Sequence record: OL780484.1
Reading direction: 5' to 3' (one strand)
Length of the DNA: 64,000 nucleotides
DNA from: Escherichia phage vB_EcoM-E33
Position 1 is the first letter of the stretch; each line of letters starts with the position of its first letter. The translations under genes and the position numbers were made by a program. Below, piece after piece: positions 34 through 1,938 of this stretch. The notes beneath the pieces are model-generated. The model was not told the DNA's origin and did no database searches. It saw only the letters and a program-made list of their open reading frames with translations.

Positions 34-510
34 ATGAAGGTCAAGATTAAGGATACCGTATTGTATTCCTTAAGCCAAGACCCGTCCCAAGATAAGAAAG
101 AAGTATTGACTCGGTGTGTCATTGCAACGTATGCCGAGTACATGGTTGCTGATTGGTTGAAAGGATATGTTAACAGTGGTCTGGAAGACCATGACGACCC
201 TTATACCTATGCATGGGATGTTTTAGCTCATCCTATGTATTGTGGACTACGTGTAGAGGTCAAGACCCATCAGTCGGATTCTAAGTGGATTTCCTGCACT
301 ACAGGATACTCCGGTGACTTCCCTTATGGAACAGGGATTAACCTGGGCCCGCTCTTGAATCATAAAGTTGCAGATTGTATAATTATATTCGACACTTCGG
401 TAAATGAGGCAGGCGATGTCCTGTTCACTCCTAAGTTCTCTGGTGACAGAGAAGCCATCACAAAGCTAGTCCGTAAGAGCAATTACAACGGCTGGTATCT
501 CGCCTTATAA
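34..510 (+). CDS. hypothetical protein, 158 aa, in the denB/ndd.x slot upstream of ndd
   Basis: ORF track; position only; no motif recognised. Confidence 0.5.
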   Translation: MKVKIKDTVLYSLSQDPSQDKKEVLTRCVIATYAEYMVADWLKGYVNSGLEDHDDPYTYAWDVLAHPMYCGLRVEVKTHQSDSKWISCTTGYSGDFPYGTGINLGPLLNHKVADCIIIFDTSVNEAGDVLFTPKFSGDREAITKLVRKSNYNGWYLAL

Positions 511-525
511 ATTTTTTAAATAAGT

Positions 526-555
526 GTTTACATACACCAAGGATGGTGTTACTAT
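526..555 (+). promoter_or_regulatory. T4-type early promoter (GTTTACA -35, 17 nt spacer, TACTAT -10), spacer has inverted repeat acacca/tggtgt
   Basis: motif read directly from sequence. Confidence 0.5.
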
Positions 556-583
556 CTTCCTATCAACTTGAGAGGAAAACAAA

Positions 584-841
584 ATGAAATTCTATTACGC
601 CAAACATAAAATTACCCGTGAGTTTGTATCGTTTTCAACCTTTTCAGATGAAGAAGACTTTTGCATCACTGGTCTGGATTTATCTAAATATGAAACCGAC
701 CAGCCTTATTTGACCACTCATGACGAGATTCAACGTTTGGTGAACGGTGAGCTAAATAATTCTTACTGCACTCAAATTTACCCTGCTTTGAAAAAAGCTA
801 TCAATGCTAATCAGATTGAAATCATTGAGGTGGAATTGTGA
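584..841 (+). CDS. hypothetical small protein, 85 aa; paralog of the next ORF
   Basis: ORF track; shares YYAKHK-T N-terminus and IEI-EV C-terminus with ORF 838..1104. Confidence 0.55.
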   Translation: MKFYYAKHKITREFVSFSTFSDEEDFCITGLDLSKYETDQPYLTTHDEIQRLVNGELNNSYCTQIYPALKKAINANQIEIIEVEL

Positions 842-1104
842 ATATCAAATTATATTACGCTAAACACAAAGTTACGGGTACGGTTGTTGCCGCCATGTAT
901 GACGCGTCAGGTGAAGGTGATGATGTTACTACAGAGTTATCTCTTTCTGATTGTAAATTTCTCCGTCCCTTAATCGCATCAAAGGAAGATTTAGAAAAGC
1001 TTATTGATGGAAAACTGGATAATGTTGACGGCATAGATATTCTTTATGACCTCCGCACGGCATTGTACAGGGGATTGATTGAGATAAAAGAGGTGGTGTT
1101 TTGA
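838..1104 (+). CDS. hypothetical small protein, 88 aa; paralog of the previous ORF
   Basis: ORF track; ATGA start/stop overlap with upstream ORF. Confidence 0.55.
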   Translation: MNIKLYYAKHKVTGTVVAAMYDASGEGDDVTTELSLSDCKFLRPLIASKEDLEKLIDGKLDNVDGIDILYDLRTALYRGLIEIKEVVF

Positions 1105-1194
1105 GTAGCAAAACGTGGTGCCTTATTTGGATGGCCTGTATCCCAGTGATTTGCGTGTGTTTTAGTTTATTGTTGTGGAAATTGGCATAAATCA

Positions 1195-1223
1195 GTATAC
1201 ATCTCCATTAATCATGATATTAT
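1195..1223 (+). promoter_or_regulatory. T4-type early promoter (GTATACA -35, TATTAT -10) followed by conserved TATAGACCTATCAACTAATGGAG initial transcribed region
   Basis: motif read from sequence. Confidence 0.45.
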
Positions 1224-1249
1224 AGACCTATCAACTAATGGAGATGATT

Positions 1250-1360
1250 ATGAAAAACTTACTTAAAGCAATTTGGAACATGTTTGTGTTGTTAATGGTA
1301 TTGAGCATTTTCCCAATCGTTTTTATGATTGACCATGTACGTGTATTCTTTAACTTCTGA
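1250..1360 (+). CDS. hydrophobic micro-protein, 36 aa
   Basis: ATG 9 nt after GGAG; sequence MKNLLKAIWNMFVLLMVLSIFPIVFMIDHVRVFFNF; below the ORF-track size cutoff. Confidence 0.3.
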   Translation: MKNLLKAIWNMFVLLMVLSIFPIVFMIDHVRVFFNF

Positions 1361-1593: not shown

Positions 1594-1938
1594 ATGTCTA
1601 AATTATTTTTTGGTAATCGCAACATTATGTTCTTTGAGCAACTCAGTCTTAAAGAGGCATTGAAGGCCTTCAATCAAGAACTGGTTACTGGGCTAGATTC
1701 AAAAACTATGGCAAGTGCGGATTTCGTTTTCGTTCAAGACCCGGATACAGGTTTTTATCGATTCATCAAATTCCGTATGAGCATGGACCCTGACTATCGT
1801 AGTGCTTACTACGTGAGTTATGAAAACGTTATCAAAGAATTACGTGATACCTATGGACGCGCTTTGAACCCACTGAACAAGGTTTATAATGCTTCTTTTT
1901 ATACGAGCGGATTTATTTTAGAACAGCTACAAAAATAG
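1594..1938 (+). CDS. hypothetical protein, 114 aa
   Basis: ORF track, start moved to ATG preceded by AAGGAAAATATT RBS. Confidence 0.5.
   Translation: MSKLFFGNRNIMFFEQLSLKEALKAFNQELVTGLDSKTMASADFVFVQDPDTGFYRFIKFRMSMDPDYRSAYYVSYENVIKELRDTYGRALNPLNKVYNASFYTSGFILEQLQK

Follow-up and report, generated by a model that had tools for sequence, protein, structure and literature searches.

T4-type phages have hyperplastic regions in which cassettes are exchanged in association with PeSL (promoter-early stem-loop) elements (Arbiol et al. 2010, PMC2839356; Comeau et al. 2014, PMC4122927). The PeSL elements of T4 and PST have the promoter consensus TTTACW-N17-TAYWAT (PMC4122927), and Comeau et al. (2014, PMC4122927) illustrate PeSL-associated shuffling with the ndd.4/ndd.5 genes exchanged between T4 and PST. 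Hyperplasticity and cassette exchange have been documented for the region considered here (PMC4122927). By annotation, the named products of the T4 denB-ndd-stp-ac cluster are DNA endonuclease IV, the nucleoid disruption protein, the PrrC activator, and the acridine resistance product, all of which act on the host.

Here we analyze two adjacent small ORFs, ORF1 and ORF2, from this region of Escherichia phage vB_EcoM-E33 (OL780484.1); "the window" denotes the whole stretch of 64,000 nt that was examined. Diverged paralogues of hypothetical proteins are common in T4-like hyperplastic regions, the annotations of phages LHE83, FB, and CJ20 already list both genes as hypothetical proteins, and the locus alone matters little. 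It does provide a clean, small example of gene-level modularity, with zero, one, or two copies among close relatives, exact ORF boundaries, and a scar in T4, together with measurable signs that one of the partners moves without the other.

Layout of the Locus

The first 2.9 kb of the window best matches LHE83 (96.6%), vB_EcoM_FB (FB; 96.8%), and IME08 (96.0%), followed by relatives of JS10 and Bp7, and on these matches the window is assigned to Dhakavirus, among the T4-like coliphages. The left edge of the slot is denB (34–510, plus strand), encoding endonuclease IV (phrog_1360, E = 3e-80). A promoter scan and reading of the sequence identify a putative early sigma-70-type promoter just downstream (527–555, plus strand), made up of TTTACA, a 17-nt spacer, and TACTAT, with TG before the -10 element. 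The promoter spacer contains an inverted repeat, ACACCA/TGGTGT (534–549), with an unremarkable fold (z = -1.0). A conserved copy of the promoter precedes the family gene in IME08 and T6 and on the contigs L007 and L009.

ORF1 (584–841, plus strand, 85 aa) begins with ATG, and a Shine–Dalgarno sequence, GAGAGGA (570–576, plus strand), ends 7 nt before this start codon. We refer to ORF1 as the A-type gene, the optional cassette copy, and to ORF2 (838–1104, plus strand, 88 aa) as the B-type gene, the resident copy of Dhakavirus and Gaprivervirus. The GTG start codon of ORF2 (838–840) sits 4 nt after GAGGTGG (827–833, plus strand), a Shine–Dalgarno sequence embedded in the conserved C-terminal E-V codons of ORF1. 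The position is occupied by ATG in L007 and in all single-copy relatives, and the ORF2 N-terminus, (N/D)IKLYYAKHK, is conserved, so the 88-aa reading of ORF2 is correct. The original prediction had the coordinates and lengths of both ORFs right; the 4-nt overlap that it gave as ATGA is GTGA.

The same geometry recurs at the end of ORF2, where a further GAGGTGG (1090–1096, plus strand), like the other two Shine–Dalgarno sequences identified by sequence reading, precedes a 29-codon hydrophobic ORF (LSSKTWCLIWMACIPVICVCFSLLLWKLA; 1101–1190, plus strand) that starts with a TTG overlapping the stop codon of ORF2. Each of the two family genes thus closes with GAGGTGG, 4 nt, and a start codon overlapping its own stop codon (827–841 and 1090–1104), so that the conserved C-terminal E-V codons also serve as the ribosome-binding site of the next gene. 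The 29-codon ORF is a homologue of T4 ndd.6: its match in T4 is the annotated ndd.6, and by tblastn it is 100% identical in IME08, 86% in L007, 76% in L009, and 40–52% in T6, T4, and RB69. It is followed by an ndd.4-like ORF (1250–1360), an ndd.1-like ORF (1371–1583), a 114-aa ORF (1594–1938), ndd (2016–2465), and gene 52 (from 2852). The description of the pair as lying upstream of ndd is true in a loose sense, as the pair directly follows denB and is separated from ndd by four small ORFs. A search of the 64-kb window with the family HMM found no third copy.

Homology of ORF1 and ORF2 and Their Family

BLASTP aligns ORF1 and ORF2 with 29/84 identities (35%), 56% positives, and one gap (E = 1e-13). 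Their Smith–Waterman score is 108, compared to 24.5 ± 4.4 with a maximum of 51 for 5000 shuffled pairs, corresponding to z = 19 and a Gumbel p of ~1.6e-11. The two proteins have in common the motifs YYAKHK(I/V)T, (R/K)L(V/I)(N/D)G(E/K)L(N/D)N, and IEI-EV, and the shared N-terminal, central, and C-terminal motifs quoted in the original prediction are present in both. The alignment is significant against shuffled controls, on which that prediction had made its claim of homology depend, and ORF1 and ORF2 are true, ancient homologues. Between A and B, dS has reached saturation. For close pairs of A or of B, dN/dS is 0.05–0.2 (Nei–Gojobori), indicating that both types are under purifying selection and are functional genes. 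The proposed placement of the pair in an early accessory region is also supported.

A homology search matched both ORFs end to end with phrog_2390. Residues 1–85 of ORF1 align to positions 3–87 of the 87-position HMM (E = 2e-31), and residues 1–88 of ORF2 align to positions 1–87 of 87 (E = 2.1e-36). The members of phrog_2390 include RB69 ORF270c and the hypothetical protein encoded directly after denB in T6 and RB14. The family is confined to T-even-type phages and is small, with 22 clusters in a collection of 5.8 billion proteins; when 1.84 billion representatives were searched exhaustively with the HMM, only 19 matched. Four of these 19 were rejected as spurious long repeat proteins: in P0029 and P0030, the match is to a repeated motif, GLKKLVNGKLxDVD, and P0032 and P0033 were judged from their many short matched stretches alone.

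These results also bear on two other accounts of the pair, a recent duplication within this phage or the chance resemblance of unrelated or noncoding ORFs. The adjacency and equal length of the two ORFs are all that such accounts have in their favor. Chance resemblance is contradicted by the z score of 19, by purifying selection, and by the full-length HMM matches; recent duplication is contradicted by an identity of just 33–35%, by saturated dS, and by the much closer relatives that each copy has elsewhere. We give these accounts next to no weight.

Predicted Structure and Possible Roles

The family proteins are about 87 aa in length, about 10 kDa, acidic, and predicted to be soluble; ORF1 and ORF2 have a pI of about 4.7. 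AlphaFold2 models of ORF1 and ORF2 (pLDDT 92 and 87, respectively) show the same element order, beta-beta-beta-alpha-beta-alpha-beta, and as both runs used one common alignment, the two models are not independent of each other. Compared to BFVD models of the A-type members from PE37, IME537, and Merlin, the AlphaFold2 models of the two proteins give TM scores of 0.79–0.98 overall, and both reach 0.90–0.98 against such independently made models. Weaker BFVD matches are uncharacterized proteins of the more distant T4-like phages Aeromonas 44RR2.8t and Serratia PS2, and all matches in BFVD are to uncharacterized phage proteins.

Comparisons with characterized proteins were negative. Foldseek found no similar solved structure in the PDB (best E = 0.42, TM 0.32), and the family profile gave only chance matches to PDB sequences. 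Pfam-A searches with ORF1, ORF2, and 19 family members (E <= 0.1) yielded three single chance matches and no family, and NCBIfam contains no family for ORF1 or ORF2. The label DUF5376 was rejected for the family, since it derives from the GenBank annotation of the vB_EcoM_Shinka homologue alone and is reproduced by no Pfam match. We detected no sequence or structural match to characterized T4 anti-defense or host-takeover proteins (e.g., Ndd, Stp, Arn, and AsiA), and literature searches by the names given to the family and its neighbor ndd.6, and on denB/ndd in an anti-defense context, returned nothing on this family.

The early promoter, the position in the denB-ndd-stp-ac cluster, the small size and the acidic, soluble character of the proteins, and the many allele classes of the A slot suggest that ORF1 and ORF2 are probably nonessential early accessory proteins; the family is dispensable because T4 lacks it. 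Judging from this context and from the T4 early accessory proteins in general, the two proteins would most likely bind a host component. If A and B target host factors or defense systems, the natural A+B, B-only, A-only, and null phages would constitute a ready-made comparison set.

Two Clades in One Slot

The family divides into two clades that are 25–38% identical to each other. Clade A (MKFKFYY...IEVEL) contains the genes of T6, RB69, and Merlin, ORF1, the proteins P0001 and P0002, and the first gene of CJ20. Clade B (M(D/N)IKLYY...EVVF) contains ORF2 and all resident Dhakavirus and Gaprivervirus genes and is found only in Dhakavirus and Gaprivervirus-like phages. In neighbor-joining (NJ) trees, B is monophyletic in 200/200 bootstraps, as is the A1 group of ORF1, P0001, and P0002. 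B is sister to A1 in 0/200 bootstraps; the two copies are not sisters, and we rejected ORF1 and ORF2 as a recent tandem duplicate. On about 87 columns, the T-even A group is monophyletic without B at 49–55% support, and B is weakly placed.

ORF1 is nearer to A-type genes of other phages (84%, 74%, and 50–58%) than to ORF2 (33–35%). It is 100% identical in LHE83 and FB only, and the next matches among phage records are Tequatrovirus-type genomes at 50–58%. In a large protein collection, the 84% identical P0001 is encoded in a tandem pair on the metagenomic contig L007, and the 74% identical P0002 is a single A-type gene on the 173-kb contig L009, with the ndd.6-like ORF directly after it. ORF2 is 80–98% identical to other Dhakavirus and Gaprivervirus copies; about 80 phage records carry B at an identity to ORF2 of at least 60%, with Bp7 at 97.7%. 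The A slot holds many allele classes with mutual identities of 45–65%, several of them among phages with Tequatrovirus-type genomes.

The identity of ORF1-type proteins to T6 (51–53%) is similar to that of neighboring early genes between the same lineages (ndd.1-like 51%, ndd 62%, denB 72%), whereas B is only 28% identical to T6. A would therefore appear to behave like an ordinary orthologue and B like a fast-diverged paralogue.

A family gene directly follows denB in T6, RB69, Merlin, IME08, L007, L009, CJ20, and the window, and in all of these except Merlin, which has a different gene next, it is followed by an overlapping ndd.6-like ORF. In T6, RB69, Merlin, and most T-even phages, the slot holds a single-copy A-type gene. 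A tblastn search located the family in 671 of 50,697 phage records, nearly always in single copy. A blastn search with the whole pair found both genes in six phage records (FB, LHE83, 212, CJ20, DCP80, and fDHCT2), which explains the records that tblastn had matched in two places, and A+B also occur in the window and in L007. A scan of IMG/VR added 17 further loci, single-copy in all 17 cases, and T4 has zero family copies and an 8-codon scar instead. Copy number in related phages, which the original prediction named as a check, thus takes the values zero, one, and two, with the tandem state rare. We rejected the idea that ORF1 is a one-off foreign insertion into a Dhakavirus, as the same tandem is present in Gaprivervirus phages and L007.

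ORF-Exact Edges and the T4 Scar

What IME08 is missing relative to the window is precisely the coding segment of ORF1, about 255 nt that lie between the ribosome-binding site and the start codon of ORF2. At the edges of this indel, IME08 reads AACAAAATGGATATC, and the window reads AACAAAATGAAATTC, then ORF1, then GGAATTGTGAATATC. The same ORF-precise difference separates the Gaprivervirus tandems CJ20 and DCP80 from the single-copy loci L023 and L026, with the promoter common to both states. At the level of sequence, these comparisons define ORF1 as a rare presence/absence cassette with ORF-exact edges.

In T4, the interval between denB and ndd.6 contains ATGAAAATCGCTGAGATTGAACTATGA, encoding MKIAEIEL and a stop codon that still overlaps the ndd.6 start. 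It corresponds to a start codon fused to the last eight codons of a T6-type gene, which ends ...NEMKIAEIEL. The scar reads as a deletion between AAATGAAA repeats in which the ATGA overlap with ndd.6 was kept.

Tandem and single loci also differ within B itself. The tandem junction is GAGGTGGAATT(G/A)TGAATAT in seven of seven loci, all of which read GAATT(G/A)TGAATAT, with B beginning M-N, and single-B loci read AAAATGGATAT in 10 of 10 examined, with B beginning M-D. This link of B residue 2 to copy number is strict. In the tandem loci, the A of AAT is required for the TGA stop codon of ORF1. The MN/MD link is not what either simple repeated deletion or simple repeated insertion would give; it calls for parallel change or for a haplotype that recombination has spread. 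Repeated deletion alone was rejected, since it cannot give ATGGAT from GTGAAT and leaves the discordant dS values described below unexplained.

Another possibility involves no duplication inside any genome: A and B would be divergent orthologues from separate phage lineages that were joined head to tail by illegitimate recombination at the ATGA start/stop microhomology in a mixed infection, and the product would then have spread. A and B each occur alone in the same slot, with the promoter upstream and the ndd.6-like ORF downstream; two A alleles, 52% identical, precede B with an identical junction, and the nearest relatives of each are single-copy genes in other phages. The documented cassette exchange in this hyperplastic region (PMC4122927) is also in keeping with such a joining. 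However, joining A to the ATGGAT of single-B genomes would leave A without a stop codon, and B is known solely from lineages that also hold A-type genes. Moreover, B is 25–38% identical to every A, whereas neighboring early genes are 51–72% identical between the same genera, so B does not resemble an ordinary orthologue. We regard this joining of divergent alleles as possible, if rather doubtful.

Discordant Histories of the Two Partners

Tandem and single loci do not separate in an NJ tree of the B genes but are mixed in at least three B subclades. The A genes of CJ20 and fDHCT2 are close (dS 0.107), and their B genes are not (dS 1.02); the B gene of fDHCT2 is instead close to a single-copy, JS98-like B (dS 0.089). 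In fDHCT2, the promoter and A are of the Gaprivervirus type and stand beside a B like that of phage IME281 (L019), and locus L025 pairs a window/IME08-type promoter with a B of the CJ20 type. The window and L007 are concordant, with dS values of 0.85 for A and 0.70 for B. Taken together, the dS comparisons establish that the A and B partners, as far as their sequences record it, have discordant histories.

A second line of evidence comes from the closest relatives of the window. Positions 486–895, a 410-nt tract that runs from the denB 3' end through the promoter and ORF1 into the first 58 nt of ORF2, are identical in the window, LHE83, and FB, and the flanks differ by 1–6%. The next longest invariant run among these three within 2300 nt is 144 nt. 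Compared to IME08, the most diverged segment is the 73-nt promoter region, with seven differences in 70 nt. As the tract is identical while its flanks differ, the ORF1 block would coalesce later than its surroundings; the evidence is that it is younger and has, by this measure, spread recently in the three Dhakavirus carriers. We read the tract as a putative recombination block. No direct donor of the block came to light; outside the three carriers, its nearest relative is 84% identical at the protein level.

These observations weigh on the view that the pair is an old in situ tandem duplication kept by vertical descent, with relatives having lost one copy independently. The occurrence of same-junction A+B pairs in Dhakavirus, Gaprivervirus, and the divergent contig L007 speaks for vertical retention, as does the similarity of the window/L007 dS values for A and B, and T4 shows that deletions at start-codon microhomology happen at this locus. 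Yet vertical retention does not account for a 410-nt tract that is identical in three phages despite flank differences or for the sharing of A, and not of B, by CJ20 and fDHCT2. It also needs losses in at least three B subclades, each with the same later AAT to GAT change at codon 2. We consider retention by descent unlikely. The original prediction of an old duplication holds as far as the ancient homology is concerned, and duplication remains plausible; its statement that the duplication was retained is not supported as worded, as ORF1 is a recombining presence/absence cassette.

Origin of the Pair

The explanation that we favor, with a confidence only slightly better than even, is that ORF1 and ORF2 are two functional phrog_2390 members, that B arose from an old duplication of A, and that A is now a recombining optional cassette. 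ORF1 and ORF2 would be transcribed from the early promoter just downstream of denB, and translation would be coupled in a chain from ORF1 to ORF2 to the ndd.6-like membrane peptide. We infer that B goes back to an old duplication of A, head to tail. An unequal exchange pairing the ATGA at the start of the gene with the ATGA of the stop/start overlap at its other end would yield precisely this junction, after which B would have diverged fast. Alternatives to duplication could equally apply: B could be an orthologue that has evolved very fast, or a gene that came from a lineage not yet sampled and was later placed beside A.

Following duplication, A may have been lost from most genomes and redistributed by homologous recombination, with the denB 3' end and the promoter serving as the left arm and the conserved 5' end of B serving as the right arm. 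In the lineage of the window, the block of promoter and ORF1 would have arrived or swept recently. A and B may have differing specificities, in which case both together would widen the repertoire of the phage.

A more far-reaching version of this explanation would make the A slot a fast-diversifying determinant of host interaction or counter-defense and B a neofunctionalized partner fixed in Dhakavirus and Gaprivervirus, with exchange at stop/start overlaps, where the conserved C-terminal codons contain the Shine–Dalgarno sequence, acting as a general ORF-precise route, distinct from PeSL, by which T4-type phages stack and remove genes. Such exchange would leave downstream genes translationally coupled, as suggested by the T4 scar. 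We regard this extension as speculative and improbable.

Comparison with Known Systems

The locus can be compared with three known systems. With respect to phrog_2390, ORF1 and ORF2 resemble the other members in their end-to-end match, length, denB/ndd.6-like slot, and predicted fold. They differ in copy number, as nearly all members are single-copy and here two clades stand in tandem. With respect to the T4 ndd-denB cluster (ndd.1 to ndd.6, stp, and ac), the gene order is collinear, homologues of ndd.6, ndd.4, ndd.1, and ndd are present, and the genes are likewise early and nonessential. Unlike the window, T4 is without the family and keeps the 8-codon remnant MKIAEIEL overlapping ndd.6.

PeSL cassettes occupy the same genome region and likewise involve small early ORFs that are gained, lost, and swapped between close relatives, and the promoter at 527–555 fits the TTTACW-N17-TAYWAT consensus. 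In contrast to PeSL cassettes, the edges of the ORF1 indel lie at a start codon and a stop/start overlap, with ATGA-type microhomology; the stem-loop lies within the promoter spacer rather than upstream of the promoter, and the exchange arms appear to be ordinary homologous sequence. ORF1 and ORF2 overlap by 4 nt with neither a promoter nor a stem-loop separating them, and ORF1 is thus not flanked by PeSL elements on both sides. The identical tract ends within denB and within ORF2 rather than at a PeSL element. We rejected PeSL-mediated exchange as the source of the ORF1 indel, since its boundaries fall at codons and not at promoter or stem-loop elements. In these respects the locus does not fit the PeSL type; it belongs to a known kind of variation, that of accessory-gene cassettes in T4-type hyperplastic regions.

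The stop codon of ORF2, the B-type gene, is overlapped by the TTG start of a hydrophobic ndd.6-like ORF of 29 codons (LSSKTWCLIWMACIPVICVCFSLLLWKLA; window 1101-1190, plus strand), a homologue of T4 ndd.6. Conservation of this ORF spans Dhakavirus to T4 and RB69, and it is left without annotation in the Dhakavirus phages LHE83, FB, and IME08. Its start codon is ATG, in an ATGA overlap, behind A-type genes and TTG behind B-type genes.

In T4 (L005, NC_000866), the gap between denB and ndd.6 harbors an 8-codon remnant of the family gene, MKIAEIEL* (locus positions approximately 4019-3993, minus strand), which is the product of a deletion between AAATGAAA repeats. This remnant retains an ATGA overlap with the start of ndd.6, suggesting that ndd.6 depends on translational coupling. 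On a 27 kb Logan contig, the 115-aa protein P0007 joins the product of a T6-type A gene and the ndd.6-like peptide in a single in-frame fusion (...AEIGTMSSLWWCFVWLISIPLICLTFTFVMRLL); this variant has lost the stop/start overlap.

The locus of fDHCT2 (L029, OR427838; 2380-3012) is a mosaic. It combines a promoter and A gene near-identical to their counterparts in the Gaprivervirus CJ20 with a B gene near-identical to the one carried by single-copy IME281/JS98-like phages (L019, L020), with a breakpoint at or close to the A/B junction. A further mosaic segment of this gene cluster is the 114-aa ORF at window 1594-1938 (phrog_10053), which is very unevenly diverged: LHE83 differs from either the window or FB by 10-12% of nucleotides, and the window differs from FB by only 1.7%.

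ORF1, the A-type gene, begins with MKFYY in the window (584-600), LHE83, and FB. Because all other T-even A-type members begin with MKFKFYY or MKFKFFY, ORF1 is two codons shorter through loss, with the lost stretch apparently corresponding to one AAATT(T/C) repeat unit.

Downstream of the ndd.6-like ORF, the plus strand contains a strong hairpin, CATCTCCATTA...TAATGGAGATG (window 1192-1252; -18.8 kcal/mol, z = -3.9), that covers the -10 region of a promoter-like site (1196-1223) as well as the Shine-Dalgarno sequence of the 36-aa ndd.4-like ORF at 1250. The same hairpin occurs in fDHCT2 and in L009, a metagenomic contig with a single A gene. A separate inverted repeat, CAGTATGGAGTC...GATTCCATACTG, belongs to the Gaprivervirus-type promoter of CJ20, fDHCT2, and DCP80 (L028-L030), where it brackets the TATAAT -10 box, approximately 70 to 20 nt ahead of the A gene. 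Compared to the Dhakavirus promoter, this Gaprivervirus-type promoter has both a different inverted repeat and a different layout.
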